Source: a bacterium (GTDB taxonomy: Bacteria; Patescibacteriota; Minisyncoccia; Phycocordibacterales; Zambryskibacteraceae). Taken from it: a DNA stretch of 64,000 nt. This document shows positions 1,211 through 26,356 of this stretch, piece by piece; the stretch's first letter is position 1; every line of letters begins with the position of its first letter. Under the pieces are notes generated by a model that did not search any database, was not told the origin of the DNA, and was given only the letters and a program-made list of their open reading frames with translations. The stretch lies in NCBI GenBank assembly GCA_030649135.1, contig JAUSGI010000005.1:5754-69753 (forward strand), in the 5' to 3' direction. A program made the position numbers and the translations under genes.

Positions 1211-1235
1211 CTCTTACCACCTCCTTCTTCCAAAG

Positions 1236-1268
1236 AACTTGAGCGAATTATTTCGCTCTTCTGAAGAA
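1236..1268. repeat. 33-bp palindrome-containing motif, copy 2
   Basis: AAAGAACTTGAGCGAAttATTTCGCTCTTCTGAA. Same position relative to the downstream start as copy 1. Confidence 0.55.
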
Positions 1269-1548: not shown

Positions 1549-1620
1549 CTGTTTCATCCTTTCGGAATCATCAGCCCGGATACACATCCGGATACAGGAA
1601 CCAGGGTTTAGCATTCCTGG
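1549..1620 (+). repeat. copy B of the repeated hairpin-rich motif
   Basis: CTGTTTCATCCTTTCGGAATCATCAGCCCGGATACACATCCGGATACAGGAACCAGGG aligns with copy A. Hairpins CCGGATACACATCCGG and CCAGGgtttagcattCCTGG. Confidence 0.5.
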
Positions 1621-2377: not shown

Positions 2378-2412
2378 GCCGTGGCGGCTTCACCGCCACG
2401 GCATCTTCATTT
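2378..2412. terminator. intrinsic terminator-like hairpin GCCGTGGCGG-cttca-CCGCCACGGC followed by a T-rich run
   Basis: Perfect 10-bp stem. It sits where the plus-strand leader unit converges with the 3' end of the minus-strand TrmB-like gene. Confidence 0.55.
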
Positions 2413-6332: not shown

Positions 6333-6692
6333 ATGGCTATAGACTACGAACACTTTAAAACAAAGCTAGAGGCGGAAAAAAAACTTTTAGAAGAAGAGTT
6401 GGAGAAAGTCGGCAGAAGAAACCCCGATAACCTTTCCGATTGGGAAGCCACCCCTGCTGACAAAGACACCTCCCAAGCGGACGAAAACACCGTCGCTGAT
6501 GGCGTGGAAGACTATGAAGACAATGTGGCAATCGTTGACACTTTGGAAACTCGTTACCGAGACCTCAAAATCGCTTTGGATAAAATCAAGCAGGGCACCT
6601 ACGGCATCTGCGAAACCGACAAAGAAGAAATAGACACGGAGCGGCTTGAAGCGAATCCATCAGCCCGCACTTGCCGCAAACATATGGAATGA
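6333..6692 (+). CDS. DksA/TraR-family C4-type zinc-finger protein (degenerate finger)
   Basis: C-terminal LDKIKQGTYGICETDKEEIDTERLEANPSARTCRKH resembles DksA/TraR. Stop overlaps the comM start (ATGA). Confidence 0.65.
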   Translation: MAIDYEHFKTKLEAEKKLLEEELEKVGRRNPDNLSDWEATPADKDTSQADENTVADGVEDYEDNVAIVDTLETRYRDLKIALDKIKQGTYGICETDKEEIDTERLEANPSARTCRKHME

Positions 6693-11266: not shown

Positions 11267-11920
11267 ATGAGAAACGTAAAACTAGTTGAAAACGAACTTT
11301 ATCACGTGATGAACCGAGGTGTAGATAAAAGGTCAATCTTCCGGGACAAAAACGACCTGGACAGATTTTTTGAGGGAATGCAGAAACTAAATGTGCTGAC
11401 TCCAACTGGGCACTTAGCTCGTCGACTCCCGGAGTCGACAGACAAGAAGCTTGTTAAGTTCATAGCGTATGATTTGAACCCAAACCACTTTCATTTTATC
11501 TTGGAACAGGCTGCAGAAAGAGGCATAGAACGGCTAATGAATCGGCTCTGCATATCGCATTCAAAATATTTTAATCTTAAGTATCATAGGATGGGCACTT
11601 TATTCCAAGGTAGATTCAAAGCAATTCATGTTGATACGAACGAATACCTGCTTCACTTAAGCGCTTATGTGAATCTAAACGATGTAGCACACACCCGCAA
11701 CAGTAAACCGGGACTGTCTAAATCAAGTTGGGTAGAATATATTGGCGAGTCAAGAGAAGAATTTTGCGATAAGTCAATAATACTTGATCAATTTAAAAAT
11801 GGAGGAGAATATAAGAGGTTCGCTGAAAGCACTTTGCGGGACATTATTGATCGAAAGATTTTGCTAGCAGAACTAGAAGACGAATTGATGTCGATTCCCG
11901 GAGTCGACAAGGCGATATGA
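11267..11920 (+). CDS. REP-associated tyrosine transposase (RAYT, IS200/IS605-like Y1 HuH transposase)
   Basis: YHVMNRGVDKRSIF, HuH motif NHFHFILE, LFQGRFKAIHVD, and the catalytic-Tyr region YLLHLSAYVNLN. Flanked by REP-like hairpins. Confidence 0.8.
   Translation: MRNVKLVENELYHVMNRGVDKRSIFRDKNDLDRFFEGMQKLNVLTPTGHLARRLPESTDKKLVKFIAYDLNPNHFHFILEQAAERGIERLMNRLCISHSKYFNLKYHRMGTLFQGRFKAIHVDTNEYLLHLSAYVNLNDVAHTRNSKPGLSKSSWVEYIGESREEFCDKSIILDQFKNGGEYKRFAESTLRDIIDRKILLAELEDELMSIPGVDKAI
11421..11439. repeat. REP-like palindrome copy 2 (GTCGACTCCCGGAGTCGAC) inside the RAYT coding sequence
   Basis: Encodes RRLPESTD within a segment that looks like an extra insertion relative to other Y1 transposases. 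Confidence 0.65.
11890..11908. repeat. REP-like palindrome copy 3 (GTCGATTCCCGGAGTCGAC) at the RAYT 3' end
   Basis: Overlaps the last RAYT codons, just before the ksgA start. Confidence 0.65.
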
Positions 11921-12702
11921 AAGCAAAAAAGTCATTGGGGCAGCATTTTTTGAGAAGCGAGAAAGCCTTGCGCGCAATTGTCGAGACCGGAGACATTAAC
12001 CATGGTGAAACAATCTTGGAAATAGGGCCTGGGCGGGGAGTTCTGACAAAAAAACTCTTGGAGGCCGGCGCGAAAGTAATCGCAGTAGAAAAAGATGACG
12101 AACTCTACGAACTTTTGCGGCAAGTATACGAAAAAGAAATTGAAAACGGGAAACTTGAATTAATTCATGGCGATATTATTGAATTTGATTTGTCTAAGCT
12201 AGCAGCTAAAACCTATAAGCTAGTGGCCAATATTCCATACAATATTACAGGCGCTATTTTAAAAAAATTCCTTGAGACAAATTGTCAGCCGGAGAGAATA
12301 GTGCTTTTGGTACAGAAAGAAGTAGCCAAAAGAATCGTGGCTCAAGACGGCAAAGAAAGCATTCTTTCTGTTTCAGTCAAAGTATATGGGGCACCAAGAT
12401 ATATAGAAACGGTAAAAGCAGGTTCATTTACTCCCATGCCCAAAGTAGATTCGGCTATTATTCTCATAGATAACATTTCCAAAAAATATTTTGCTCATTT
12501 TTCCGAAAAAGATTTTTTTACAACGGTTCGCACTGGATTCAAATCCAAACGCAAAAAACTTTCTTCCAATCTTTCGGCAATATTTGCTAAAGAAAAGGTC
12601 CTGGAAACATTTCGAAAACTGAATTTAGACGAGAATCTGCGAGCCGAGGACGTCGGGATTGAGACTTGGGGAAAACTTGTTACCCACCTGTGCTCTGATT
12701 AG
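11917..12702 (+). CDS. rsmA: 16S rRNA (adenine1518/1519-N6)-dimethyltransferase
   Basis: LGQHFL, ILEIGPGRGVLTKKL and NIPYNIT motifs of KsgA/RsmA. The start overlaps the RAYT stop. Confidence 0.9.
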   Translation: MKAKKSLGQHFLRSEKALRAIVETGDINHGETILEIGPGRGVLTKKLLEAGAKVIAVEKDDELYELLRQVYEKEIENGKLELIHGDIIEFDLSKLAAKTYKLVANIPYNITGAILKKFLETNCQPERIVLLVQKEVAKRIVAQDGKESILSVSVKVYGAPRYIETVKAGSFTPMPKVDSAIILIDNISKKYFAHFSEKDFFTTVRTGFKSKRKKLSSNLSAIFAKEKVLETFRKLNLDENLRAEDVGIETWGKLVTHLCSD

Positions 12703-13072
12703 TACCAACTTTGCCCATGAGACCGAAGGACGGCCAGACTATGCATTCTTCTTCAAGAATCATCCAGCAAGCCTGAACCCCCGGGGTGTAATCCCCCAGA
12801 TGCCAGGTACCAGAGACGCCGATCTCGTAATAACCATAGAGAATAGTGGAGTAAGGGGAATAGACCATGGGGCCGGTAATCACTACCGGCCCACCCAAGT
12901 AAAGCGGAGAAAACCATATCCACATAAAACCGACGGTACAGGTGCACTCCATTTCGAAAGAAACGACGCCACCGAAAGGCAGTAACCCTTGAGCCTTAGC
13001 TGGCGAGGTTGGCAAAAACAACCCTACGAGAGTGAGAGAAATGACGAGTGTAATTAGTTGCTTCCTTTTCAT
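12680..13072 (-). CDS. small secreted Cys/aromatic-rich protein
   Basis: Signal peptide MKRKQLITLVISLTLVGLFLPTSPAKA. The mature part is rich in W/Y/C. Confidence 0.45.
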   Translation of the reverse strand: MKRKQLITLVISLTLVGLFLPTSPAKAQGLLPFGGVVSFEMECTCTVGFMWIWFSPLYLGGPVVITGPMVYSPYSTILYGYYEIGVSGTWHLGDYTPGVQACWMILEEECIVWPSFGLMGKVGTNQSTGG

Positions 13073-14046
13073 ATTATTATTTCGAGCTTATACGGTTCCC
13101 TATTGATACCGTGTTCGTTCTTAACGTAAATCCAGAGCGGTGCTTGATAACCGCCACGGGTAAACTGCTTGATTTTATCGTACATGGAAAGCTCTGTGAT
13201 GCGGAAAGTTAGAGTAGCGCCATTGGAAGATACCGGACCGGATAAATTACCGAGAGTGGTAATGATTTTGTTCGCGGCGGTAAAACCACTACCAACGAGA
13301 GTGACCGTCCCATCCATAGCAGAAGCACTTTCTATTGTTGGCCCCGGCTGGGGTTGACTTGTAACCTTGATGGCAATTTTAATCGCGGGGTTATCAGAAG
13401 AGCCTAATGTGTTGGACACAGAGAGTCTGTATTCGCCCTCGGAAAGACCGGCGGGTACAAACATTTCGATATTAGTGCCATCCGTGGATACGGCGGTAGC
13501 GAGCTGGCTACCGTTAAAATAAATTTTATTGAGAGTTTTGCTGAAGCCGGAACCGTCAAGCACAAGGGTGTCGCCAGACCGCACCTCAAATGGCGAGGCG
13601 CGGAAAAGCATCACCTGGTCAACTCTCATACCGGGCGCGGCAAGAGTGTCGGCTTCAACGCTCGGCAAGAAACTGAACGAGGTGGGCACCACGGGCACGG
13701 GCGCTGGATTTACGGGAGTAGCGGCAACCGGCGCCGATGTGGTCAGCTTAGTATTAAAAGCTTGGCGCGAAATCGGACCGAAGTAACCAACTGCCGGAGC
13801 AATACCGTGAGCACTCTGCCATCCTGCTACCGCTCCTCTAGTCAAATAACCGAAATAACCATAAGAGACGCCCGCCGGCATCTGTAGGTAACCTTTTACT
13901 ACGAGAAACTGCTGGAGAAGAACGACATCAGCGCCCCTGCTTCCAATGGTTAGGTTGGTAGTAAACGTCTCGGCATCTACTGGAGTCGCCAGAACGCCGA
14001 GAGCCAATATTATGGCAAGTAGAACCGAGGGAAAAAAGAATCGCAT
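13069..14046 (-). CDS. secreted peptidoglycan-binding-domain protein
   Basis: Signal peptide, then a PG_binding_1-like motif (GSRGADVVLLQQFL...GYFGPISRQAF), then a beta-rich region. Confidence 0.6.
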   Translation of the reverse strand: MRFFFPSVLLAIILALGVLATPVDAETFTTNLTIGSRGADVVLLQQFLVVKGYLQMPAGVSYGYFGYLTRGAVAGWQSAHGIAPAVGYFGPISRQAFNTKLTTSAPVAATPVNPAPVPVVPTSFSFLPSVEADTLAAPGMRVDQVMLFRASPFEVRSGDTLVLDGSGFSKTLNKIYFNGSQLATAVSTDGTNIEMFVPAGLSEGEYRLSVSNTLGSSDNPAIKIAIKVTSQPQPGPTIESASAMDGTVTLVGSGFTAANKIITTLGNLSGPVSSNGATLTFRITELSMYDKIKQFTRGGYQAPLWIYVKNEHGINREPYKLEIII

Positions 14047-14097
14047 ATCCTCAATTATACACAAAAAGTTGCGGTATCTTCTGATATACTAAAAGCA

Positions 14098-14886
14098 ATG
14101 TCGCGAATCCCGTTTATCAGCGCGCTCTCCATTTCTGTCGCTCTTATTGGTGGAGCGCTGTGGGTTAGATTCTTCCCGACCAACCTACCGCCCGCTCAAA
14201 TAGCCTCCGTTCCGGCAAGCGGGCAACTTTCATCTGCAGATACTTTCGTGGAAGACTTTTATGATGCCGGGGCTTCTCTACCCAGGGCATCAACCAGTAC
14301 ACTATCCCAAGCAGACTTGCTTGGCCGGCGACTGTTTACAGATTTTATGTCGCTTAAATCGCAAGGCCAGACCTCTTCAGACAATATTACCGCTTTAGCC
14401 GATAAATATGCGGAGAGTATCAAGAATACCGAAATATCGACACCTAAAGTAAACCTAAGCCAAATTGTCGTCATTCCTAATTCTGTGGAAAATCTGACCA
14501 GTTATGGCAACTCCATGATAAATATCCGTAATAGGTATAAAAACCTTGTAGCTGCCCAAGATAACGGTGGAAATATTGCGGACATTACCGGCCCAGCCTT
14601 CTCGACCTTTATGGGCTCGGTTGGAAAGTTATACCAAGCATCAGCCAATGAGCTTCTGACCATCGAAGTACCCGAGTCACTTGTTTCAAACCACATGGCC
14701 ATCATCAATAGCTATCTGGAAAGCGCTAAGGTCATGAAATTACTAAGCGACACCGCTAAAGACCCGTTGCAAGCATATGCGGCGCTAAACATTTATGCCC
14801 AGAACACCGGACAGGAATCCGAGTTTCTGCTGAACATTCAAAAAACCCTAATGGCCAATGGTATAATTTCTGGTAGCAGCATATGA
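14098..14886 (+). CDS. hypothetical membrane-anchored protein (first gene of the T4SS-like cluster)
   Basis: N-terminal TM segment. No recognisable domain. Confidence 0.5.
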   Translation: MSRIPFISALSISVALIGGALWVRFFPTNLPPAQIASVPASGQLSSADTFVEDFYDAGASLPRASTSTLSQADLLGRRLFTDFMSLKSQGQTSSDNITALADKYAESIKNTEISTPKVNLSQIVVIPNSVENLTSYGNSMINIRNRYKNLVAAQDNGGNIADITGPAFSTFMGSVGKLYQASANELLTIEVPESLVSNHMAIINSYLESAKVMKLLSDTAKDPLQAYAALNIYAQNTGQESEFLLNIQKTLMANGIISGSSI

Positions 14887-16262
14887 ACTACCGCAATCAT
14901 ATCTTAGCTATTGGCTTCATTGTCCTTGCGCTCATCTCTGTCTTACCCAATAGAGTCATGGCGGTAGATTCTGTCTCCCCGATCCCGGTTGCAGATTCTA
15001 TCGTGCGGGACAAAGAAGCGGGGTTAACTATTTTCGGCTATACCATCCCGGGTCTAACTTGGGATAGTATAGCCATAGCTCTAGCGAAAGTAGTATTGGA
15101 AAAAATATTCCAAGCTACCACAGATTGGGTTAAAAGCGGCTTTGAAGGCAATCCGGCTTATGCGACCGACCCGGCACAATTTTTCACCAATATTGCAGAC
15201 GGTATTGCGGGAGACTTTATCGGGGGTTCGGATCTTGCGTTCTTATGTTCGCCGTTTCAGGTGAAAATCAGACTTGCTCTGCAGAGATACCATACTCAAA
15301 GGCGGCAATTCCAGTGTACTTTGACAGGCATAGTAAAGAATATGGACGCTTTCTATAACGACTTCAGCCAAGGGGGGTGGAACGGATGGTTCTCTATGAC
15401 TCAAAACGATAATAATAACCCTTATGGATCCTTTCTTAAGGCGCAAGTTGAACTCGACTATCGTATCGCAAAAGCCCTGAGTATTAAGGATAAACAACTT
15501 AGTTGGGATAGCGGGTTCTTAGGCTGGTCTGAATGTATCAGAAAAGATGACGAAAATGGGGAATGTTATGAACGCGGACCAACAAAAACGCCAGGGAAAG
15601 TCATTGAGAGTCAGTTCAACGGTAACCTAGGAAGCGCAGTGAGACAACTTGAGCTCGCAGACGAATTTGATGAATTGCTTACTGCTTTGGCCGCACAGCT
15701 CTTGAAACAGGCCGTAGATGCTGTATTTACTAAAAAAGGTCTCTTCAATGAAGGAGGTGGTCCTCCTCCGGTTCCTGTAGCTTTAGGCATTTCTAAATTA
15801 GGTACCGGCGCAGGTACCGTGACCTCAAACCCTGGGGGGATAAACTGCGGCTCGGCATGCTTTGACACCTACAGACTCGGCGCATCAGTCACTCTTACAG
15901 CAATACCATCTGCTGGCTCAATCTTTAGTGGTTGGCCGGGAGCATGCTTCGGCCTAGGCACTTGTGAGGTAACCATGAATACAGATAGGGACATAACGGC
16001 CATGTTTGATTTGAGTATGGCCCTAAGTATTGTCAGATCCGGCACCGGTTCAGGCACGGTAACTTCAGTCCCCGCAGGTATTAATTGTGGCCTTGCCTGT
16101 CGAGCCATTTATCCAGCCGATTCATCAGTCATTATCACTGCCGCGCCAGCTTCCGGCTCGACCTTTGTCAACTGGTCTGGGGGAGGATGCCGCGACGTAG
16201 GGCGCACTTGTGTGGTGCGCATGAGCGTGGACAGAGATATAACGGCCGAATTCGCTAGATGA
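14883..16262 (+). CDS. secreted protein with two C-terminal tandem InlB-B-repeat-like (Listeria-Bacteroides repeat) domains
   Basis: Signal peptide. Two roughly 75-aa tandem repeats, G(T/S)G.GTVTS.P.GINCG..C...Y...S.V..TA.P..GS.F..W.G.C....C.V.M..DRDITA.F. Confidence 0.55.
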   Translation: MNYRNHILAIGFIVLALISVLPNRVMAVDSVSPIPVADSIVRDKEAGLTIFGYTIPGLTWDSIAIALAKVVLEKIFQATTDWVKSGFEGNPAYATDPAQFFTNIADGIAGDFIGGSDLAFLCSPFQVKIRLALQRYHTQRRQFQCTLTGIVKNMDAFYNDFSQGGWNGWFSMTQNDNNNPYGSFLKAQVELDYRIAKALSIKDKQLSWDSGFLGWSECIRKDDENGECYERGPTKTPGKVIESQFNGNLGSAVRQLELADEFDELLTALAAQLLKQAVDAVFTKKGLFNEGGGPPPVPVALGISKLGTGAGTVTSNPGGINCGSACFDTYRLGASVTLTAIPSAGSIFSGWPGACFGLGTCEVTMNTDRDITAMFDLSMALSIVRSGTGSGTVTSVPAGINCGLACRAIYPADSSVIITAAPASGSTFVNWSGGGCRDVGRTCVVRMSVDRDITAEFAR

Positions 16263-18436
16263 AAAAATACTTTCCACATATTTCCGCTTTCATTCTCACC
16301 TTAGTACTTGTCTTCGCGATGAGTGGATTTCTTTTTCCTCAAATTGTGCACGCCGGCGTTTGGGATGTTTTGGAGTGTACAGTATCTCCTTTGGATTGTG
16401 CACTAAGAAATTTCGTTAGTTTTGTAGTGGGTATGATTTTAAAATTGGTTAGTTTGCTCACTGGTTTGGCTGGTATTATTTTGAACGGAGTTATCTTCTA
16501 TACAGTTGTTGACGTATCTAACAACTATGCCAAGATTCCGGCCATTAGCAAAGCTTGGGAAGTCATTCGAGACGTTGCCAATATGGGTTTCATTTTTGTC
16601 TTGCTTTACGCGGCCATAAAAACAATATTGGGTATCGGTAGTGATGTCAAAAAACTTATCGTCAACATTATTGTGGTCGCAATCCTCATAAACTTCAGCC
16701 TCTTCTTCACCAAAATAGTCATAGATATATCCAACATTTTAGCTCTATTCTTCTATGAGGCCATAGCACCGGGAGCCCTGGAGTCTACAAATATCTTAGA
16801 GCAGGCCGGCCTTTCAAATGCTTTTATGCAATACCTGAGTCTTCAGAGTCTTTACAAAGTTGCCGAGATTAAAGGCTTAATGCCTATAATCACTATAGGC
16901 ATAATGGGCTCCATCATGCTTCTTATTGCCTCTTTCATCTTTTTCGCCGTAGCAATTATGTTTATCATCCGCTATGTCGTTCTGATTTTAGTGCTCATCC
17001 TCTCTCCCATAGCATTTATGTCATTTGTCCTGCCTGAACTCAAAAAATATAGAGACCAGTGGTGGAATGCTCTGTCTGGTCAGGCATTCTTCGCACCCAT
17101 ATACTTCATGCTTACTTGGGTAACCCTTGTTGTATTGGGAGGTGTTATAAAGGCAAGCTCGTTTGGCGAAGTGGATAAAACAACAGATGCCCTAGGTAAT
17201 CTAGTCCTGACGGATAATGGGTTAACCTCCCTGTCGGGTGGAGCTTTCGCCATGTTCATAAACTTCGTCGTTATTATTGTCTTTCTCATTACTTCTCTCA
17301 TCATCGCCAAAGAATGGTCCAATAAAGCCGGTCCGGGGGTATCGGGTCTCACCAAGTGGGCCATGGGCGCCGCCGGCGGGGCGACACTTGGTATGGCGGG
17401 TAGGTTTGGGAGGGGAACAATTGGTAGGGCGGGAAGTGCCTTGGGAGAGAGTGAGGAACTGAAGGCGCGGGCAGCACAGGGAGGTATGGGAGGCATGGCA
17501 GCTCGATTAGCTTTGGCAACTGGACGAAGAACTGGTAAAGCAAGTTTTGATGTACGAGGTACTCCTATCGGAGGACAATTAGACGCCGGCAAAGCTCAGA
17601 AAGGTGGATTTGCCCAAGTCCTGAAAGACAGAAATAAAAAAGAGAAAGAATTTGCGGATTCTCTTGGCCCGTCAGATGCACTCATTGCTGAGAAAGAAAG
17701 AGCGATGGAACGAATTGCTGCTACTGAAAGAGCGGCAGGAAGAAGACCGGAAGGAAGTACTGAGTGGTTAGCGGCTCGTGGAGAGGTTGACAAAATGAAA
17801 GGTGTAGATGAAAAAGAGGCAATCAAAAGAATAAGAGACGAGGCAAGAAGAGTGGGAGAAGAAATGTCTGAAGAAGAAGCTAGGAGAGTAGTAAATGAAG
17901 ATAGGGACAGATTTGTTATAAAATCTATAAAAGACGAGCGCAAAGAAGAACGCGTAGAAAGTTTGGAAAGAAGCCCAACTTATATGGCCGCAGAAACCCT
18001 TGAGGCGGGTGGCAGAAGGATTGCTGAAACAAGGCCCGCACAAGCCATAACCAGAGCAGCGGGTAGAACAGCCCAACTGCTTACTGGAGCTGGGGAGAAG
18101 GCAAGTGGAGCAATCGCAAATGTTACCGATATGAGGGGCTTGAGAACGGTGGGAAGATGGGCTGGTGGGGCGGTCAGAGGTGTAATCAACGCCCCGGCTG
18201 AAGCAACGCGTACGGCAGTAGGAGCTGTACGCGAAATTCCTAATATGATTAAAGCCAAGAATCGTGCAGCTATTGCAGAAATCAGAAAAGGCAAAAAACC
18301 AGTCAAGGATCAACTACAGGAAATATTAGAAGCGGAAGGCGAACGCCCAACAGGCGGAGCAGGTGCAACGCCAACAGGAAATGTACCAACCGGAGATGCG
18401 ACCGCAACACCCGGAGGAACACCTCCTACGGCATAA
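16259..18436 (+). CDS. TrbL/VirB6-like polytopic membrane protein with a charged low-complexity C-terminus
   Basis: Signal peptide plus at least six predicted TM helices, followed by a long Ala/Gly/Arg/Glu-rich tail. Positioned in the T4SS cluster upstream of VirB4. Confidence 0.55.
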   Translation: MKKYFPHISAFILTLVLVFAMSGFLFPQIVHAGVWDVLECTVSPLDCALRNFVSFVVGMILKLVSLLTGLAGIILNGVIFYTVVDVSNNYAKIPAISKAWEVIRDVANMGFIFVLLYAAIKTILGIGSDVKKLIVNIIVVAILINFSLFFTKIVIDISNILALFFYEAIAPGALESTNILEQAGLSNAFMQYLSLQSLYKVAEIKGLMPIITIGIMGSIMLLIASFIFFAVAIMFIIRYVVLILVLILSPIAFMSFVLPELKKYRDQWWNALSGQAFFAPIYFMLTWVTLVVLGGVIKASSFGEVDKTTDALGNLVLTDNGLTSLSGGAFAMFINFVVIIVFLITSLIIAKEWSNKAGPGVSGLTKWAMGAAGGATLGMAGRFGRGTIGRAGSALGESEELKARAAQGGMGGMAARLALATGRRTGKASFDVRGTPIGGQLDAGKAQKGGFAQVLKDRNKKEKEFADSLGPSDALIAEKERAMERIAATERAAGRRPEGSTEWLAARGEVDKMKGVDEKEAIKRIRDEARRVGEEMSEEEARRVVNEDRDRFVIKSIKDERKEERVESLERSPTYMAAETLEAGGRRIAETRPAQAITRAAGRTAQLLTGAGEKASGAIANVTDMRGLRTVGRWAGGAVRGVINAPAEATRTAVGAVREIPNMIKAKNRAAIAEIRKGKKPVKDQLQEILEAEGERPTGGAGATPTGNVPTGDATATPGGTPPTA

Positions 18437-18449
18437 CAAATCAATTATT

Positions 18450-19343
18450 ATGGAGGAAGATAAAATCTTACAGGAACAAATAAAAAATGCCCCGACGGAA
18501 ATAAAAAACCTCCTGACAAAAGGGGACTGGTCTATTGTGGTTAGCCAGATATCCCGAAAGAATAATTTCTCTCATGAGCAGACAGTAGCCCTCGAAAATG
18601 AAGTGTTATTCGTGTTACTTAGCATGGAGCTCTCCAAAGATTTGGTGAGAAATATGCAGGATGTGTTAGAAGTTCAGGAGAGTGTCTCACAAGAAATCGC
18701 ACGAGAGGTTAATGAAAAAATATTCAAGGAAGTAGAACCGTTTCTCCCGACATCGTCGGAAGATTCGAACTTAATCGAAAGTCTGCATGATGAAAATAGC
18801 GCGGAGAATATTCGTCAGATTTTGAAAGCCAATACCGGAGAAGACAGAGACAAACTGATAGCAAACCAACTCAAGAAACTGCCGGAAGCACTCCAGCAAG
18901 CTATTCGAGTGGTACCTTGGAAATCTGTGGTCAAGGAGATTGCCCTTCTCAATAAACTGGACCTCGCTCAAATTGTGGCAGTCGAGAGGGAAACTATGTT
19001 CGTCATTTACGGCTTTGAGGACGAGAAAAACTATCTCTCCAACGTCATGAGAGAGGCGAAACTTGATGAAGCAATGGCCACCACCATCACTGCCGCCCTG
19101 AACGAAAGGGTATTTAAAGTCATAGTCAACAAAGTCAACGAATCTGGACCCGCATCGCAAAATGCCGCCACCAACGTGCCGGAAATTCCTCCGGCTAACC
19201 TGCCCATGATTGAAAAGGGAGAAGTAGTGCATGATGCGGCGCCAACGGTCACGAAAGAGATAAAAATTGAAAAGTCGAAAGTCTCTTTGCCAGACTATCG
19301 TTATCCTAATGGTAAAGACCCATATCGCGAACCGTTGGTATAA
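18450..19343 (+). CDS. hypothetical protein
   Basis: Start at ATG 18450 (MEEDKILQEQ...). No recognisable domain. Confidence 0.5.
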   Translation: MEEDKILQEQIKNAPTEIKNLLTKGDWSIVVSQISRKNNFSHEQTVALENEVLFVLLSMELSKDLVRNMQDVLEVQESVSQEIAREVNEKIFKEVEPFLPTSSEDSNLIESLHDENSAENIRQILKANTGEDRDKLIANQLKKLPEALQQAIRVVPWKSVVKEIALLNKLDLAQIVAVERETMFVIYGFEDEKNYLSNVMREAKLDEAMATTITAALNERVFKVIVNKVNESGPASQNAATNVPEIPPANLPMIEKGEVVHDAAPTVTKEIKIEKSKVSLPDYRYPNGKDPYREPLV

Positions 19344-19355
19344 AATAAAAACACA

Positions 19356-19796
19356 ATGCGTTTCCAAGTTCCTCAATTCATAGAAATAGAAGACAAGATT
19401 TTCGGCCCTTTGACTTTCAAACAGTTCATTTACATTGCGGGTGGAGTGGGTGTTGCTGTCATGCTTTTTGTCTTCCTGCCGAAATTTTTGGCCGCTCTCG
19501 TTGCTCTGCCGGTGGTGCTCTTCGGCGCAGCATTGGCTTTTTACAGACTCAACGGTAAACCCTTCGTGAACGTAGTCGAGGCTTTTGTGAAATACACCTT
19601 CACCAGCAAACTTTATATTTGGAAAAAGGAGGAAAAGCAAGTGATAAGCAATCAACCCCAAATGGACAGGAAACCGATTGAACAGGTGTATGTTCCAAAA
19701 CTTTCCGGCTCAAAGCTGAAAGAACTTACTTGGAGCCTAGATATCAAAGAGGCTACCAATCCGGTAACCTCAAACGAGGACAAGTCTAGTGTATAA
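19356..19796 (+). CDS. PrgI-like (VirB3-like) small membrane protein
   Basis: MRFQVPQFIEIEDKIFGPLTFKQFIYIAGGVGVAVMLFV... matches the PrgI-family pattern found next to VirB4 in Gram-positive-type T4SS. Confidence 0.5.
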   Translation: MRFQVPQFIEIEDKIFGPLTFKQFIYIAGGVGVAVMLFVFLPKFLAALVALPVVLFGAALAFYRLNGKPFVNVVEAFVKYTFTSKLYIWKKEEKQVISNQPQMDRKPIEQVYVPKLSGSKLKELTWSLDIKEATNPVTSNEDKSSV

Positions 19797-19803
19797 TTAG
19801 CAA

Positions 19804-20445
19804 ATGTCTCCGAGTACAAATGCTACTCAAGAATTTGTTCCCATCAAGGAAGTGCGCGACGGCGTCGTCCTACTGAAAGATGGCGGCATGCGTGCCATTC
19901 TCTTGTGTTCGTCTCTAAACTTCGCGCTTAAATCCGAGGATGAGAGGCAGGCTATTCTTCTGCAGTTCCAGGATTTTCTTAACTCCCTAGACTTCTCGAT
20001 TGAGATAGTAGTGCAGTCGCGCAAACTCGATATCCGGCCATACATAGCGCTACTCGAAGGGCAAGAAAAAATACAAACCAACAGTCTGATGAAAATACAG
20101 GTTCGAGAGTATATTGAGTTTATCAAGAGTTTCACCGAAAACACGAATATCATGACTAAAAACTTTTTCATTGTGGTGCCATACAGTCCGGCCATGTTGA
20201 ATGCCCATAAATCAGGGGGTATCGTCTCGCGCCTTGGATTCGGTACCAAGAGAGAGCGCGCGGCCGCCACAGAAGCGGGATTTGACGAAAATCGTAGCCA
20301 ACTGGAAGAGCGGCTATCGGTGGTTGAACAGGGACTTATCCGTACCGGTATCCGCGTGGTGCGCCTCGGCACGGAAGAAGTCATTGAACTTTTTTACAAG
20401 GCCTTTAATCCGGGGGAAACGGAAAAGCCACTAAAAGTGAGCTAG
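19804..20445 (+). CDS. hypothetical protein (resembles the N-terminal region of VirB4/TraC)
   Basis: EFVPIKEVRDGVVLLKDGGMRAILL... Ends in a strong palindromic hairpin. Confidence 0.45.
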   Translation: MSPSTNATQEFVPIKEVRDGVVLLKDGGMRAILLCSSLNFALKSEDERQAILLQFQDFLNSLDFSIEIVVQSRKLDIRPYIALLEGQEKIQTNSLMKIQVREYIEFIKSFTENTNIMTKNFFIVVPYSPAMLNAHKSGGIVSRLGFGTKRERAAATEAGFDENRSQLEERLSVVEQGLIRTGIRVVRLGTEEVIELFYKAFNPGETEKPLKVS

Positions 20446-20469
20446 CTCACTTTTAGTGGCTTTATTCAC
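20427..20469 (+). terminator. perfect 16/16 palindrome GCCACTAAAAGTGAGC-tagc-TCACTTTTAGTGGC followed by a T-run
   Basis: The stop codon of the upstream ORF sits in the loop. Likely an intrinsic terminator or an operator. Confidence 0.55.
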
Positions 20470-20492
20470 AATAGATAATTAACAATTTACAA

Positions 20493-20852
20493 GTGAAACA
20501 ATTCAATTTCTTGGATTGGCCGGTGTATAAAGATGCGCAAGAATTAGTCTCTTTTTCATTAGAAATAGTAAGGAAATTACCAAAAGAACACCGGTTTGAG
20601 TTAAGTTCACAATTGATTAGATCTAGTTCTTCAGTCGTTTTAAATATAGCAGAGGGAAGCGGTAAGTCATCTAGGAGAGACTTTTCTCATTTTATTGATA
20701 TAGCACTGGGTTCTCTCTATGAAACTGTTGCGAACATGGATATTCTAAAGACAAACCAGCTAATCAACAATACAGACTTTGAACTAGCCAAGGAAAAGGC
20801 TGCGAGTATCGCTAGACAACTAGGCGGCTTTAGGAAAAAGCTCAAAACATGA
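20493..20852 (+). CDS. four-helix-bundle protein (23S rRNA intervening-sequence-protein family)
   Basis: Pattern ...VVLNIAEGSGKSSRRDFSHFIDIALGSLYETVANMDIL... typical of this family. Located here between T4SS genes, not in an rRNA. Confidence 0.65.
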   Translation: MKQFNFLDWPVYKDAQELVSFSLEIVRKLPKEHRFELSSQLIRSSSSVVLNIAEGSGKSSRRDFSHFIDIALGSLYETVANMDILKTNQLINNTDFELAKEKAASIARQLGGFRKKLKT

Positions 20853-20880
20853 CTCAAATTCACCTATTGTTTATTGTTCA

Positions 20881-22776
20881 TTGTTCATTGATAATTACTA
20901 TATGAGTATTCTCGATAAATTATTTGGAAAGGGGGGAGCAAAAAAGCCGGATATTTCTTCTATCTTGCCTCAAGAAATTTTTGAAGCGGGGCTACTTGAA
21001 CTCAAAGATATTATCGCGCCTTCCGCACTCAAGATTACCCCGAAAGAAATCAATCTGGGCGAGAAAATTTTACGAAGCTTCTTCGTAATTTCCTATCCGC
21101 GCTTTCTTTCTGAAGGATGGTTCTCGCCCATTATCAATATGGATAAGGTTTTCGATATTTCTATTTTTATTCACCCCATCGAAACTTCGAGGGTGTTACG
21201 CCAATTCCAAAGAAAGGTAGCCGAGGTTCAAAGCCAAATCCATAGCCGGGAAGAAAAGGGTTTGGTGCGTGACCCGATGCTTGACGTCGCTTACCAGGAC
21301 CTTGAGAATTTGCGTGACCAACTCCAGCAAGCGCAAGAGAAACTCTTCGATGTCGGCCTCTATATAACCATCTATGGCGACAGCGACTCGGAACTTGATA
21401 AAGCGGAATCCGAAATCAAATCAATTCTTGAGGCCAAACTTATATACGTCAAGCCCGCACTCTTTCAACAGGAACAGGGATATAAAAGCACTCTTCCTCT
21501 CGGCAACGACCTTCTGGAAGTGCACTCAAAATTGAATTCTTCTCCGCTCTCATCTCTCTTCCCATTTACTTCGTTTGACCTCACTTCCGACAAAGGCATT
21601 CTCTACGGCATCAATAGGCACAACTCGTCTCTGGTGCTTTTCGACCGCTTCTCGCTTGAAAATTATAATTCCATCATGTTCGCCAAATCCGGAGCCGGTA
21701 AATCTTATGCCACCAAACTCGAGATTTTGCGTACCCTGATGTTTGATACGGAGGTGATAGTGATAGACCCGGAGCGAGAGTACGAATATATGGCAGAAGC
21801 TACCGGAGGGAGATACTTCAAAATTTCTCTTAATTCCGAGCACCACATTAACCCGTTTGATTTGCCCGTACCGGGGCCGGACGAAAGCGCCGCCAACGTG
21901 CTTCGCTCAAATATCATCAACTTAGTCGGCCTCTTTCGCCTGATGATGGGCGGTCTCTCCGCGGAAGAGGATGCCATCATCGACCGAGCTATTACCGAAA
22001 CTTATGCTCTAAAGGATATTACGGTGGAATCGGATTTTCGCACCATTGAGCCCCCACTCATGTCAGATTTTGAAATGGTACTCATCGGCATGGAAGGCGG
22101 CGAATCTCTAGCTCAACGTCTTTCCAAATATACCAAGGGCACTTGGTCAGGATTTATCAATAGACCTTCTAATGTCGATATCAACAGAAAATTCGTGGTC
22201 TTTTCACTGCGCGACATGGAAGATGAGCTTAAGCCCATCGCTATGTACATTGTCACTCATTACATTTGGAATGCCATCCGCAAAGAACTAAAGAAGCGTC
22301 TACTTGTTATCGATGAGGCATGGTGGATGATGAAGTCGGAAGATACAGCTTCATTCCTCATGGGTCTGGTCAAGCGCGGCCGTAAATATTTCCTTGGAGT
22401 AGCCACCATTACCCAAGATGTCGGGGACTTCTTGAAAAGCCCCTACGGCTTGCCAATTATCACCAACTCCTCCATCCAGATTCTTTTGAAACAATCGCCG
22501 ACAACTATAGGCGAACTCCAGAAAACTTTTAATCTTACAGATGAGGAGAAGTATCTCTTGCTCGAATCAGACAGGGGAGAGGGCATCTTCTTCGCCGGCC
22601 TCAAGCACGTGGCAATTAAAAATATTGCCTCATATACGGAAGACCAAATTATCACTTCCGACCCATCTCAAGTTTTGGCCATCAAGAAAGCCAAACAAGA
22701 CGCCATGGAAGATAAGGAGGTCGCCTTGAAAGCCGCGAGCGCTGAATTGAAAGAAGCTGAAACAACAAACACATAA
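20881..22776 (+). CDS. VirB4/TrbE-family type IV secretion ATPase
   Basis: Walker A FAKSGAGKSYATK, Walker B LLVIDEAWWMM, overall VirB4 architecture. Confidence 0.85.
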   Translation: MFIDNYYMSILDKLFGKGGAKKPDISSILPQEIFEAGLLELKDIIAPSALKITPKEINLGEKILRSFFVISYPRFLSEGWFSPIINMDKVFDISIFIHPIETSRVLRQFQRKVAEVQSQIHSREEKGLVRDPMLDVAYQDLENLRDQLQQAQEKLFDVGLYITIYGDSDSELDKAESEIKSILEAKLIYVKPALFQQEQGYKSTLPLGNDLLEVHSKLNSSPLSSLFPFTSFDLTSDKGILYGINRHNSSLVLFDRFSLENYNSIMFAKSGAGKSYATKLEILRTLMFDTEVIVIDPEREYEYMAEATGGRYFKISLNSEHHINPFDLPVPGPDESAANVLRSNIINLVGLFRLMMGGLSAEEDAIIDRAITETYALKDITVESDFRTIEPPLMSDFEMVLIGMEGGESLAQRLSKYTKGTWSGFINRPSNVDINRKFVVFSLRDMEDELKPIAMYIVTHYIWNAIRKELKKRLLVIDEAWWMMKSEDTASFLMGLVKRGRKYFLGVATITQDVGDFLKSPYGLPIITNSSIQILLKQSPTTIGELQKTFNLTDEEKYLLLESDRGEGIFFAGLKHVAIKNIASYTEDQIITSDPSQVLAIKKAKQDAMEDKEVALKAASAELKEAETTNT

Positions 22777-23297
22777 TGCCAGAAGCAAATCAAATACTAG
22801 ATTTCAATACTTTTCGACAAAGAAGACTGGCTAAAATCCAGAAAGAAACTGCTGATATTACCCAAAAAATGGAGAAGAGAAATAGGGTTAAGACCTCAGA
22901 TATCATTCTTATGGTGGGTACTGCTCTCTTTTTCGACAGTATTCAGGCTTTATTTCTCTTGATTCCATTTTTGGGATGGGCACTGTCTTCCTTAATCTCA
23001 ATATATGCTTGGCTAACTTTTTACGTCTGGACGTCTGTTAAGGGATGGGGGGTAGTATCAGATACAGTCAAGAAAGCAATCGTCCCTAAAGGTAAAATCG
23101 TAAAATTTATTATTAAGTGGCTTACACCGTTAATAGAACTTATTCCGGTAGTAAACGTAATCCCAACTTGGACAGTTTCGATTATTCTGCAACTGTTACT
23201 TATTAAAGCCGAGGATGTCCTTTATAACACTACCGAAGGAAAGGTCGACCTCGAAAAACTGGGAGAACTTTATAAACAATATAGAAAAGTTGCCTAG
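22776..23297 (+). CDS. hypothetical integral membrane protein
   Basis: 3-4 predicted TM helices. Part of the T4SS-like operon. Confidence 0.45.
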   Translation: MPEANQILDFNTFRQRRLAKIQKETADITQKMEKRNRVKTSDIILMVGTALFFDSIQALFLLIPFLGWALSSLISIYAWLTFYVWTSVKGWGVVSDTVKKAIVPKGKIVKFIIKWLTPLIELIPVVNVIPTWTVSIILQLLLIKAEDVLYNTTEGKVDLEKLGELYKQYRKVA

Positions 23298-23313
23298 GGT
23301 ATATAATAAGGAA

Positions 23314-24012
23314 ATGAAAAAGTACCACCTTCTCTTAGTTACTCTTGTACTCATCACGCCCGTTTTCTATTCACAGGCGCAAACGGTGGATATCCTCTGG
23401 CAGGGACAAACTTACACCTCGCCTTTCTACAAAGGTAAATCACTATGGTCTAGCCAGTCCAGAATTACCTTCTTGGCCATACCGCACGGTACCGGTACTG
23501 GTAACCCAGCAAGCCTTATCTATAAGTGGTCTAAGAATGGCACGGTGCTCGGTAATATCAATGGTGTGGGCAAAAACACCATGGTTTACACTGACTTAAT
23601 CCTTTCCAAACCCCAAACTGTCAAGATAGACGTCCTCTCTCCTGACGAGGGCCTCCTGGCCAGTGCGTCAGTTGCTGTCACCCCGATATCTCCAATTCTC
23701 GCTATTTATGAAAACAACCCGCTGTATGGATTTATGTTCCACAAAGAAACCAGCGGGACACATGAACTTCAAAATAAGGAAGCTACTTTCACGGCATTTC
23801 CTCTTTTCTTCAGCGTTTCCAATCGTATGGATAGCGGCCTGAAATATGAGTGGCGTACCAATGACGGGGGAGTAGAAACCAGTAACTCAGTGACATACCG
23901 AGTGCCGGATGATACCCCGGGCACATCCGCGGTCGCGGTGGAGGTCTCTAACATAAACAAGATTATGCAGAGCTCCAATAAGAGTTTCTTGATACAATTT
24001 GGAAAGCAATAA
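23314..24012 (+). CDS. hypothetical secreted protein
   Basis: Signal peptide MKKYHLLLVTLVLITPVFYSQAQ. Beta-rich. Confidence 0.5.
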   Translation: MKKYHLLLVTLVLITPVFYSQAQTVDILWQGQTYTSPFYKGKSLWSSQSRITFLAIPHGTGTGNPASLIYKWSKNGTVLGNINGVGKNTMVYTDLILSKPQTVKIDVLSPDEGLLASASVAVTPISPILAIYENNPLYGFMFHKETSGTHELQNKEATFTAFPLFFSVSNRMDSGLKYEWRTNDGGVETSNSVTYRVPDDTPGTSAVAVEVSNINKIMQSSNKSFLIQFGKQ

Positions 24013-24013
24013 G

Positions 24014-24430
24014 ATGAAGAGCTTTGCTACTTACTGTCTGATACTTGTCGCCCTTGTCTTGATTCCTGTTTCTGTTCCTGTGCTTACCAAAGCGGAAACC
24101 GAATACACGCTTCTTCAACCTCTCCCCCTTTACGGTCTGGATACAGTAGATCAGGAGAAAACGACCGCTGAACAATACATTGAAGGCATTGTTACCTTAA
24201 CTATTGCCATAGCCGGGGGGCTTGCGGTGATTATGATTATTTACGGTGGCATCAAATATATGTCGAGTGATGCAATCGGAGGGAAAGGTGAGGCCAAGGA
24301 TATTATCCAAAACGCCATATGGGGGCTCCTTCTAACCATCAGCGCATGGCTCATTCTTTATACTATTAATCCAGATTTGATAGAATTTAATTTAGACCTC
24401 CCCACTCCGGATAAAATCAATAACCCTTAA
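24014..24430 (+). CDS. VirB2/TrbC-like pilin candidate
   Basis: Signal peptide, then two hydrophobic helices (TLTIAIAGGLAVIMIIYGGIKYM... and AIWGLLLTISAWLILYTI). About 135 aa, as for conjugative pilins. Confidence 0.5.
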   Translation: MKSFATYCLILVALVLIPVSVPVLTKAETEYTLLQPLPLYGLDTVDQEKTTAEQYIEGIVTLTIAIAGGLAVIMIIYGGIKYMSSDAIGGKGEAKDIIQNAIWGLLLTISAWLILYTINPDLIEFNLDLPTPDKINNP

Positions 24431-25653
24431 TGAAAAAAATTTTAATCATCTTAGTAGCAATTATCGCAATCACTCTAGCCGTTTTCTTTGGGTGGTATTT
24501 GTTCTTCCAAAATTCCGATATGCCCGTAGGAGAGGTGGTTAGAAATGTTTTGCCATTCGGTTCCGGTGGAGATACTTCCTTACCAGTGAACCTGCCGGGT
24601 GGAAACGAGCAATTGCCTAATGGACAACAACTGCCGGCAGACGAGTTTGCCAGACCAAATGCCAAACTCTTCCGCATTGCCGATACCCCCATAGCCGGTG
24701 CGGTAGTATTTAAAAGAGGAAACCAAACGGTCGTACGCTACGTTGACCGCGCCACAGGACATATCTATGATGCCGATTTGGCAACGCTCGAGAAGGTAAA
24801 GGTGTCCAACAACACCCTGCCCAAAATTTACGAGGCCTATTTCAGAACAGACGGCAACGCAGTACTTCTCCGGTCTCTCAAGGACAACTCCGATGTGGTA
24901 GAAAATTTATCTCTCACCCTTACTCCTCCCCAATCATCGAGCACCCTATACGCCATCTCATCTACAGCCCTACGCGGTAACATTGGAGCTGTCGCTGTGG
25001 GTTCCGGCAACACCCTCGTATACACTCTGCGAGACACCGCTACCGTGGTTGCTTCGGCCTTCAATGGCACCGGGGCCAGAATCCTACTTACCTCACCCTT
25101 CACAGACTGGCGACTGGCATCGGCCGGAAACAGTTTAGTGCTATACACGAAAGCAAGTGTTAATGCGCCAGGTTATGCCTACGCCCTAAACACGTCCGGC
25201 GGGGCATTAAAAAAAGTTATTGGACCGCTCAACGGATTGGTAGCTCTGCCCGATAGTTCCGGCAATCGAGTACTGTATTCATATGTCGAGAATAACAAGA
25301 CAAAATTGGTGACTAAGAATCTTACCAATAATATCGTTTCCGAAATATCCCCCGTCACATTGGCTGAAAAATGTCTTTGGAGTATAAGAAACGCAGGCAT
25401 CCTTTTCTGTGCCGCGCCCACTGACAACTTGGGACCTGACGAACCTGATAGTTGGTACAGGGGAGTAACGCACTTCTCCGACCGTATTTGGCTCTTTGAC
25501 ACCAAAAGCGGAGTGTCCCAAGTCTTGGTAGAACCAAAGCAGAGCCTCGATACGGAGCTTGACGCGGTAGACCTAAAACTTTCCCCCAGCGAAGACTATC
25601 TCGTTTTCACAAATAGAACCGACCTCTCACTTTGGGCACTTAGACTTGAGTAG
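24430..25653 (+). CDS. hypothetical membrane-anchored protein
   Basis: N-terminal TM. No recognisable domain. Confidence 0.5.
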   Translation: MKKILIILVAIIAITLAVFFGWYLFFQNSDMPVGEVVRNVLPFGSGGDTSLPVNLPGGNEQLPNGQQLPADEFARPNAKLFRIADTPIAGAVVFKRGNQTVVRYVDRATGHIYDADLATLEKVKVSNNTLPKIYEAYFRTDGNAVLLRSLKDNSDVVENLSLTLTPPQSSSTLYAISSTALRGNIGAVAVGSGNTLVYTLRDTATVVASAFNGTGARILLTSPFTDWRLASAGNSLVLYTKASVNAPGYAYALNTSGGALKKVIGPLNGLVALPDSSGNRVLYSYVENNKTKLVTKNLTNNIVSEISPVTLAEKCLWSIRNAGILFCAAPTDNLGPDEPDSWYRGVTHFSDRIWLFDTKSGVSQVLVEPKQSLDTELDAVDLKLSPSEDYLVFTNRTDLSLWALRLE

Positions 25654-26356
25654 CCCTGATGTTTTTCTTGATAAAAAGTTCCTGCCCAATACTGAACAGG
25701 TTGGTGGTAAGCCAGTAGAGAGCAATAACTCCGGAAATTTTGTAGGAAATAAAAAAAACTATCACCGGAAAGAAATATTTCATTTGAGTCTGCATGCTAC
25801 GGGTAAGATTGTTGCCAAATGAATCTCCTTTTGGCTGAACCTGTCCCTGCATAGAAAGTTTGAACTGGAAAAAGGTAGAGACGGCGGCCAAAAAAGCGAT
25901 CACGGCACTTTTGGCCGTGATGTCCAAAAAGCCAAGAAAGGTGGTGCTAATATGGCTCGGCTCGGTCACGAATGAATATAAAAGGGCGGAGTTAACTTCC
26001 GGAAAGTGCAGGAAAATTTGATACAAAGCGAAGATAACGGGAATTTGGATAATAATGACCAATATGCCCGAGAATGGGTTAACCCCTTTTTCTCTGTATA
26101 GAGCGAGGGTGAGTTTCGCTTGCTCCTCGGCCTTATCTTTATATTGCTCTTTAATCTTGGCTAAAGCGGGAGCTATTTCTGTCATCTTTGCTTGCGCAAG
26201 TACTGCCTTTCTGGAAAGAGGGAAGGTTGCCAAGCGAACTAGAATAGTGAGGATAATAACCATCACCCCGGCATCGGCCCAGGGCAACACCTTAAACAAA
26301 AACATTAAAATATTGTAGAGCGGGTCGAAAAAAAACGTGTGATAGAGAAAAGACAT
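25640..26356 (-). CDS. yidC: membrane protein insertase YidC (short Oxa1-type)
   Basis: Multi-TM protein with the YidC core. Synteny with rnpA and rpmH. Confidence 0.85.
   Translation of the reverse strand: MSFLYHTFFFDPLYNILMFLFKVLPWADAGVMVIILTILVRLATFPLSRKAVLAQAKMTEIAPALAKIKEQYKDKAEEQAKLTLALYREKGVNPFSGILVIIIQIPVIFALYQIFLHFPEVNSALLYSFVTEPSHISTTFLGFLDITAKSAVIAFLAAVSTFFQFKLSMQGQVQPKGDSFGNNLTRSMQTQMKYFFPVIVFFISYKISGVIALYWLTTNLFSIGQELFIKKNIRATQV

Follow-up and report, generated by a model that had tools for sequence, protein, structure and literature searches.

The VirB4 ATPases of Patescibacteria form a monophyletic clade related to MPF-FATA type IV secretion systems (T4SSs), and TrsD is the most abundant partner beside VirB4 in these bacteria, which also carry PrgI/VirB3, VirB6, and VirB2-like pilins (PF18895), the pilins sometimes being arrayed (Quinonero-Coronel et al., Microb Genom 2025, PMC12102498). 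Relaxases are almost missing from Patescibacteria, coupling proteins are rarely found near virB4, and in Paceibacteria the T4SS lies near dnaA, dnaN, and ksgA (PMC12102498). A co-opted, non-conjugative role, possibly the import of DNA or other macromolecules, was proposed by these authors (PMC12102498). A homologous cluster, including its pilins, was shown by transposon sequencing (Tn-seq) to be indispensable for the growth of Southlakia epibionticum as an epibiont (Wang et al., Cell 2023, PMC10633639), and this cluster (SEML1_0006-0019) has neither a coupling protein nor a relaxase (PMC10633639). The present analysis concerns a cluster of twelve open reading frames (ORFs), designated g1 to g12, at positions 14098-25653 of a 64,000-nt stretch of contig JAUSGI010000005.1 from a member of the Zambryskibacteraceae. 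This whole stretch is called the window below.

The interval is filled by 12 packed ORFs, all on the + strand (ORF list and translations; Table 1), just as an earlier note made from the DNA letters alone had described. The intergenic gaps are -4 to +16 nt for the cluster ORFs, g7 excepted, whose flanking spacers measure 47 and 49 nt, and the spacing of the cluster is operon-like. That note took the whole for a twelve-gene T4SS operon, a view borne out by the signature families of the cluster but not by g7, which is a cassette of the unrelated S23p family. Four independent signature families, namely VirB4, PrgI/VirB3, T4SS pilin, and TrbL/VirB6 (the last through orthologues), share this operon, which supports its identity as a T4SS. 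Judging from these matches, we have very little doubt that the locus is a patescibacterial chromosomal T4SS.

The motor is g8, which matched the NCBIfam model for VirB4-like conjugal transfer ATPases of the CD1110 family with 380 bits (cut-off 325; E 2e-113) and, in the PDB, VirB4 (4AG5; E 1.3e-38) and residues 290-735 of TrwK (E 1e-7). Its P-loop AKSGAGKS (read in the translation) and its Walker B motif LLVIDE are both intact. The PrgI-like protein and the VirB2-like pilin candidate that had been proposed were both recovered: g5 matched PF12666 with 50.2 bits (cut-off 27; E 3.8e-13) and has orthologues in 71 of the 80 related loci described below, and g11 matched the T4SS_pilin family PF18895 with 32.8 bits (cut-off 26.6), as its orthologues also do, with an additional weak match to TrbC. 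The g11 product has a signal peptide and two transmembrane (TM) helices, and it is the single pilin copy in the window, without a C-terminal extension. The protein described earlier as TrbL/VirB6-like and polytopic with a long charged tail is g3, consisting of a signal/TM segment, about eight more TM segments, and a 330-aa tail of which 34% is charged. The topology was as expected, and TrbL was reached through homologues only: the gathering threshold of PF04610 (25.9) is exceeded by two homologues of full length, P0429 (27.3; 48% identity with full cover) and P0503 (28.7), and TrbL was matched by 5 of 40 syntenic g3 orthologues. On this transitive homology, g3 is accepted as a VirB6 member. 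The g3 profile gave nothing meaningful against PDB sequences. Thus the profile searches that had been suggested for each ORF found VirB3, VirB2, and, by way of orthologues, VirB6, but no VirB8 match.

The VirB4 ATPase predicted by the earlier note is present, but it is not one gene. The TrsD-like g6 matched positions 101-233 of the NCBIfam model VirB4_plasma (E 9.6e-12), TrsD (E 3.5e-4), and positions 2-118 of the CD1110 model; a profile search with g6 alone against PDB sequences returned nothing meaningful. An artificial concatenate of g6 and g8 is collinear (residues 7/19-779 of 837) with the single-ORF VirB4 of Clostridium plasmids, and VirB4 is therefore encoded here by two genes. Because 74 of 77 loci carry the g6 orthologue as an ORF of its own (206-222 aa), the split is ancestral in the clade. 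Insertion of g7 as its cause was considered and ruled out, since cassette-free relatives have adjacent g6 and g8 in different frames. In one related locus (L016, 5549-6311), what could be detected of the TrsD-like protein was limited to residues 1-31 and 191-213, with ~500 nt between these and virB4; deletion, replacement, or faulty assembly may account for this.

To place the locus, species-representative genomes were scanned with g8, and the best 80 of >591 loci (numbered with the prefix L) were compared. These best 80 matches all belong to metagenome-assembled genomes (MAGs) of Patescibacteria assigned to Zambryskibacteria, Taylorbacteria, Wolfebacteria, or "Parcubacteria/Paceibacterota", with g8 identities of 78-96% across the 80 species-level genomes. 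Plasmid VirB4s reach no more than 33% identity, and this pattern is consistent with a place of g8 in the patescibacterial VirB4 clade; the closest relatives of g6 plus g8 outside the Patescibacteria are plasmid VirB4s of Firmicutes and Actinobacteria (28-33% identity), all monoderm. The order uvrD-ksgA-(two divergent ORFs)-g1-g2-g3-g4-g5-g6-g8-g9-g10-g11-g12-yidC-dnaA-dnaN was found by tblastn in essentially all of the 80 loci that were long enough. This synteny, together with the conservation of VirB4, indicates a vertically inherited core system and not a mobile element.

The absence of a relaxase and a coupling protein (VirD4) from the window, as previously noted, was confirmed: no ORF of the relaxase, VirD4, or FtsK-like type was found in the 64 kb by translations, Pfam, and tblastn, the other P-loop proteins of the window being UvrD, ComM/YifB, RuvB, PilB, DnaA, and TsaE. 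A Clostridium relaxase, MobC, the CD1115 VirD4, and SLT were then used as tblastn queries against the window and the ±10 kb neighborhoods of the 80 genomes; VirD4, relaxase, MobC, and SLT were found in 0 of 81 sources, compared with 81 of 81 for VirB4 (PrgI was missed too, so that the search is weak for short divergent proteins). Because relaxase, MobC, VirD4, and SLT were not found, the site is fixed beside yidC-dnaA-dnaN, and VirB4 is strongly conserved, a non-conjugative use is supported, in agreement with the earlier note and with published proposals (PMC12102498; PMC10633639).

The same data bear on another idea, in which the cluster would be what is left of an integrative and conjugative element (ICE) or plasmid in decay, with the relaxase and coupling protein gone. 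Outside the Patescibacteria, the nearest homologues do lie on Firmicutes conjugative plasmids, and the window does contain mobile genes (a Y1 transposase-like ORF and recombinases at 3181-4119 and 60887-62611). Set against this are one gene order and one dnaA-side site in 80 genomes, the high identity of VirB4, and intact ORFs; no integrase or att-like boundary was found at the cluster flanks, and the guanine-plus-cytosine (GC) content of the cluster (0.44-0.47) equals that of the rest of the window. We consider such a remnant extremely improbable, and it was rejected on synteny and conservation.

The best explanation overall is that the locus encodes a relative of the monoderm conjugation machinery (MPF-FATA; CD1110-type VirB4) from which the functions of DNA processing and coupling have been lost, to which we assign a probability of about 0.8. 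Several points weigh against this reading or against its functional side. The evidence for a non-conjugative system covers 64 kb of the genome, a distant VirD4 being possible, and VirD4 homologues lie far from virB4 in many Patescibacteria (PMC12102498). The g3 product of the window itself is below every Pfam/TrbL threshold. No VirB8-like or VirB1-like component was recognized among the 12 ORFs with SLT, CHAP, NlpC, and VirB8 profiles; a structural analogue of either may be present within g1, g9, or the N-terminal domain of the secreted protein g2. An AlphaFold2 model of that domain (34-sequence alignment) reached a mean predicted local distance difference test score (pLDDT) of 38, with no usable fold. 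Pilus formation, the substrate, and the direction of transport are points that we infer, and we know of no experiment on any Paceibacteria T4SS.

The remaining ORFs of the cluster, g7 apart, form a conserved accessory set. The g1 protein had no match in Pfam, NCBIfam, or the PDB; its syntenic orthologues were found in 20 loci, and bacterial TSP3 repeats occur in 7 of 21 orthologues. The InlB-B-repeat-like secreted protein that had been recognized before is g2, whose two repeat domains (PF18998, E 1e-16) follow a conserved N-domain of about residues 1-290 (window 14883-15760). No Pfam model covers this N-domain and its profile found nothing meaningful among PDB sequences, but it matched 5,194 cluster representatives at E <=1e-3. 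Among the 150 best matches listed (P0241-P0385 include members), it is always N-terminal in proteins of 183-1170 aa, the C-termini of which vary (GH5-like, TIG, surface immunoglobulin (Ig)-like, and InlB-B). The g4 protein has no TM segment and no Pfam or PDB match. Its helical N-domain (~100 aa) is tandem-duplicated in this genome only, and the C-terminal DPYRE(P) motif, which follows a disordered linker, is invariant in all 24 aligned orthologues and looks like a short linear docking motif. For g9, only weak sub-threshold profile matches were obtained, with orthologues detectable in 24 loci.

The g10 orthologue profile matched the Ig domains of T4 Hoc (3shs, E 1.3e-5), and some orthologues matched Ig_3 or BiPBP_C; g10 is present in 72 loci. 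Structure prediction, which had been suggested for the secreted proteins, succeeded for g12 but not for the g2 N-domain. In the AlphaFold2 model of g12 (pLDDT 84.5, predicted TM-score 0.79), a TM helix (residues 2-25) is joined by a disordered linker (27-69) to a propeller (80-405) that probably has ~7 blades, to go by the strand pattern of the model and its matches. Foldseek returned generic WD40/TolB-type propellers only, a search against PDB sequences gave no match, and g12 is present in 58 loci. The "missing" VirB8, VirB1, and VirB5 roles may be filled from within this conserved set: g1, the N-domain of g2, g4 (which ends in the DPYRE motif), g10 with its Ig-like domains, and the g12 propeller.

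In the relatives, the pilin also varies at its C-terminus. C-terminal extensions of 80-290 aa were found in 42 of 66 g11 orthologues (e.g., L002:12891-13730, L003:14580-15422, L005:8462-9715, L006:12922-13767, L007-L011, and others) and could be sorted into 21 or more groups that are unrelated to one another. One group is weakly Peptidase_M15_4-like, and HWH or HExxH motifs are seen in some. Such polymorphic modules, in the pilin as in proteins of the g2 family, could help to show what the machine presents to the host.

The cluster thus encodes a platform made up of g3 (VirB6/TrbL-type), g5 (PrgI/VirB3-type), and the two-piece VirB4 (g6 and g8), plus the pilin g11, and an exported or anchored set comprising g1, g2, g10, and g12, with signal or anchor segments in g2, g10, g11, and g12. 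In such a machine, a VirB4 hexamer would dock on VirB3/VirB6 and pull the pilin out of the membrane, and the pilin would polymerize into a conjugative-type pilus or a channel across the monoderm envelope. Sec-exported, pilus-associated proteins (the pilin and the adhesin-like g2) would then be presented at the host cell surface, leading to host contact and perhaps to local wall breaching or the uptake of host material. Among T4SSs without a coupling protein, some (Bordetella Ptl) handle substrates that Sec has already moved across the membrane, and others (ComB, Ced) bring DNA in. Because no coupling protein or relaxase is present, the export of cytoplasmic DNA or effectors seems unlikely. Host contact and presentation would be favored over DNA import or effector injection because g2, g10, g11, and g12 are Sec-exported or anchored with adhesion-type folds, and surface presentation is further backed by the exchangeable C-terminal modules that the pilin and the g2 family have in relatives. 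A pilus-based role in host contact without conjugation is, from the predicted gene products, plausible rather than probable.

The import of DNA has been put forward for these systems, and is the hypothesis favored in PMC12102498: the machine would resemble H. pylori ComB or archaeal Ced, also T4SSs without VirD4 and relaxase (PMC12102498), and would bring in DNA of the host, or another source of nucleotides, for a cell unable to make these itself. ComM/YifB and the UvrD helicase are encoded upstream of the cluster, and g8 shows a weak similarity to CedB (NF041017, E 1.4e-9), but at only 37 bits against a cut-off of 700, which does not place g8 in the Ced type. A DNA-binding or translocase component was not identified in the operon, and ComEC/type IV pilus (T4P) competence is already present in Patescibacteria (PMC12102498). 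In Southlakia, comEC is non-essential and the T4SS essential (PMC12102498), which does not tell the direction of transport. On balance, we regard DNA import as rather unlikely for this locus.

Contact-dependent export of a protein effector or toxin into a host bacterium, of the Xanthomonas or Bordetella Ptl type, would fit the precedent of Ptl and Brucella VirB, both of which function in the absence of a coupling protein (PMC12102498), and protein export was one option for the authors of the Southlakia study (PMC10633639). The variable enzyme-like modules (GH5, HExxH, and M15-like) on the pilin and the g2 family of relatives point the same way, but these hydrolase assignments are weak (E 0.0026; E 2e-6 to 5e-5), the pilin of the window has no C-terminal module, and the window cluster contains no effector-immunity pairs or recognizable toxin domains. 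Effector export is quite unlikely here, and a pilus for host contact remains the role that we prefer.

Between the two VirB4 genes lies g7, a member of the 23S ribosomal RNA (rRNA) intervening sequence (IVS)/four-helix-bundle protein family (PF05635, E 1e-27; TIGR02436, E 9.5e-28). By its family, g7 is not a T4SS component and is foreign to the system. Because only 0-8 nt separate the g6 stop from the g8 ATG in cassette-free relatives (boundaries compared with L001-L014), the window holds an insert of ~456 nt at 20446-20901. Imperfect inverted repeats bracket g7 (20464-20492 and 20867-20895), and in the minimum free energy fold of 20415-20905 (z -4.25) the flanks are paired around the ORF. The flank-flank duplex has a z of -3.4 in the window and of -3 or below in 12 of 18 related-locus cassettes, compared with 6% of control gene flanks; it was also significant in a third of 70 metagenomic g7 relatives.

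An S23p-type ORF was found in 14 of the 80 related loci, in differing spacers (g4/g5, g5/g6, and g6/g8): L003, L004, L005, L006, L010, L015, L019, L030, L048, L055, L057, L068, L071, and L073; two further loci, L081 and L082, also have one. Other g7 relatives, with 43-49% identity, are located within a 23S rRNA gene (L144), within a 16S gene (L090), and in 16S leaders (L088 and L096). It is this location of relatives in rRNA genes and leaders that ties g7 to the classical IVS elements, which are excised by RNase III (PMC4990558). The cassette of the window sits in a spacer of an mRNA operon and not in an rRNA helix.

A perfect palindrome spans the left boundary of the insert (Table 1), and its right arm is missing in cassette-free relatives. 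Perfect hairpins of at least 10 bp were found upstream of 10 of 18 cassettes, compared with 6 of 172 control sites. The orthologous cassette occupies the same site in L081 and L082 (88% and 78% amino-acid identity), and across the hairpins of the window, L081 (~1017-1053), and L082 (~2439-2470) there are 13 shared pairs and 4 compensatory double changes, with 0 pairs broken. All three stems are Watson-Crick only, and this lack of G-U pairs hints at a DNA-level process. The ratio of nonsynonymous to synonymous substitution rates (dN/dS) of g7 is 0.03, with dS about 1.8, indicating purifying selection. The locus closest to the window by g8 identity (L001, 96%) has no cassette and a clean junction, which means either precise loss there or independent gain. 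We take the cassette to be a selfish IVS-type element tolerated in operon spacers, and its removal or processing probably takes place in the RNA. Its presence within an essential operon, and its covarying hairpin derived from the target, could guide work on how IVS elements spread and are tolerated.

A bolder reading combines both subjects: the T4SS pilus of this clade would act as a scaffold on which exchangeable "warheads" are displayed or delivered, a polymorphic device for attacking and attaching to the host surface and not a conduit for DNA, and S23p/IVS elements would be general parasites of operon spacers that are removed from the RNA. For the first part, the basis is the extended pilins, some of them metallopeptidase-like, and the g2-family N-domain (a docking domain on that reading) with its adhesin and glycoside-hydrolase modules; for the second, it is the long retention of the cassette (dS saturated) with its covarying, target-templated hairpin. 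We hold the combination to be unlikely as it stands.

The cluster adjoins the genes of the chromosomal replication origin, since yidC, dnaA, and dnaN follow directly downstream. The probable start of g4 is the ATG at 18450 and not the GTG at 18363; g10 probably starts at the ATG at 23314, followed by a signal peptide, and g11 at the ATG at 24014. A scan for promoters and terminators over the operon did no better than shuffled sequences. The divergent pair at 12680-14064 was also found upstream of the cluster in L003, L009, L014, L017, L022, L062, and others, and is possibly associated with the T4SS. Some relatives have a second Y1 transposase-like copy between g9 and g10 (L003 13332-13772 and L004 12906-13346, both on the - strand).

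Table 1. Features of the T4SS cluster, its IVS-type cassette, and its flanks (positions in the window).
Feature	Position	Strand	Basis or remark
ComM/YifB	6671-8218		Upstream of the cluster
UvrD/PcrA	9218-11203		Upstream flank
Y1 (IS200-like) transposase-like ORF	11267-11920		Between uvrD and ksgA, kept in relatives
KsgA	11917-12702		Upstream flank
130-aa ORF	12680-13072	-	Partner of the 331-aa secreted protein
Secreted protein, 331 aa, PG_binding_1 and TIG domains	13069-14064	-	Pfam
g1, membrane-anchored, one N-terminal TM segment, largely helical ectodomain	14098-14886	+	ORF, TM profile
g2, Sec-exported, conserved N-domain, then two InlB B-repeat domains	14883-16262	+	PF18998
g3, VirB6/TrbL-type polytopic membrane protein	16259-18436	+	TM profile, tail composition
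g4, soluble acidic protein, helical N-domain, disordered linker, C-terminal motif	18450-19343	+	Alignment, TM profile
g5, PrgI/VirB3-like small membrane protein	19356-19796	+	PF12666
g6, TrsD-like, detached N-terminal part of VirB4	19804-20445	+	NCBIfam
Perfect 20+20 nt palindrome	20424-20463	+	Left arm, last g6 codons and stop; right arm, first 18 nt of the insert
IVS-type cassette with S23p ORF g7 (20493-20852)	20446-20901	+	PF05635, comparison with relatives
g8, VirB4 ATPase, C-terminal three quarters, motor	20902-22776	+	NCBIfam, PDB, motifs
g9, small polytopic membrane protein, fast-evolving	22776-23297	+	TM segments
g10, Sec-exported, Ig-like beta-sandwich domains	23314-24012	+	Orthologue profile
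g11, VirB2-like T4SS pilin, pilin-only form	24014-24430	+	PF18895
g12, membrane-anchored extracellular beta-propeller	24430-25653	+	AlphaFold2 model
YidC	25640-26356	-	Downstream flank
DnaA	26714-28195		Downstream flank
DnaN	28400-29503		Downstream flank

Elsewhere in the window, T4P genes are found at 38808-40490 (-), 55014-56573 (+), and 56570-57088 (+), comprising a PilB/GspE ATPase, a PilM-PilN fusion, and a PilO-like ORF; because these genes are present, the genome has T4P machinery separate from the T4SS. The left edge of the window (1-2000) is a GC-rich island (GC 54-61% vs about 45% elsewhere), adjoined by a TrmB-like regulator (2407-3147) and a tyrosine recombinase (3181-4119), and is probably a foreign integrated element. 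It contains two candidates for type-III hammerhead ribozymes in the same orientation, 1,166 nt apart (380-434 (-) and 1546-1600 (-)), which score 42.7 and 30.7 bits, both below the Rfam gathering threshold of 48.5, the first with U replacing A in core position 9. Folding of the intervening RNA is much stronger than that of shuffled sequences (z -8.9 and -6.4), but small ORFs led by Shine-Dalgarno sequences lie there, coding for a lipoprotein (510-821 (-)) and a zinc-ribbon protein (1043-1210 (-)). Near the right end, a large serine recombinase with Resolvase, Recombinase, and zinc-ribbon domains is located in 60869-62611, its 3' end overlapping tRNA-His (60869-60943), and is followed by ORFs of unknown kind (62898-63689); this end of the window looks like the edge of an integrated element.

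In comparison with known elements, g7 is like the 23S IVS of Coxiella burnetii (PMC4990558) in its S23p family, its size (456 vs 428 nt), and its complementary flanks, which are predicted to form a stem. It differs in lying in the spacer of a protein operon instead of in rRNA, and in having an extra perfect hairpin formed with an inverted copy of the 3' end of the upstream gene. The Coxiella IVS ORF was reported to be decaying and untranslated (PMC4990558), unlike g7 with its low dN/dS. No such cassette came up when PMC12102498 was searched for "four helix".

With the MPF-FATA modules of monoderm bacteria (CD1110/CTn2-type; pSXP-169_2; TrsD/TrsE of pGO1), the locus shares a VirB4 of the CD1110 family, PrgI upstream of it, and no VirB7/9/10. 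In C. perfringens pSXP-169_2, the order is MobC-relaxase-DUF3801-VirD4-hypothetical-hypothetical-PrgI-VirB4-SLT hydrolase, with PrgI directly before VirB4; in the window, PrgI (g5) is close upstream of VirB4, with only g6 and the g7 cassette between. A split into TrsD and ATPase, as in the window, was also seen in Bacillus and Paenibacillus plasmids (two-piece matches). The plasmid module has MobC, relaxase, VirD4 (CD1115), and SLT, whereas none of these was found in the window or the 80 loci, and the cluster is fixed in the chromosome, unlike the mobile MPF-FATA modules. Gram-positive systems have no VirB2-type pilin (PMC12102498), whereas the window has one.

The closest likeness is to the patescibacterial T4SSs already described (PMC12102498 and PMC10633639), with which the locus shares VirB4, an adjacent TrsD, PrgI/VirB3, VirB6, and a PF18895 pilin, a chromosomal site beside dnaA, dnaN, and ksgA, and the lack of a nearby relaxase or coupling protein. 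We see no difference in kind from these systems; the local features are a single unextended pilin, the duplicated g4 N-domain, and the IVS cassette between trsD and virB4. The proteins g1, g4, g9, g10, and g12 and the g2 N-domain are not among the components listed in the sections of PMC12102498 that were covered. Its component set, its site, and its non-conjugative reading are all in the literature, which makes the locus an ordinary example of the described system, with nothing new in kind. Few machines have been shown to be indispensable to the epibiotic life of these ultra-small bacteria; the patescibacterial T4SS is one of them, and the present locus is a clean, fully syntenic Paceibacteria example of it with a defined, conserved accessory set.

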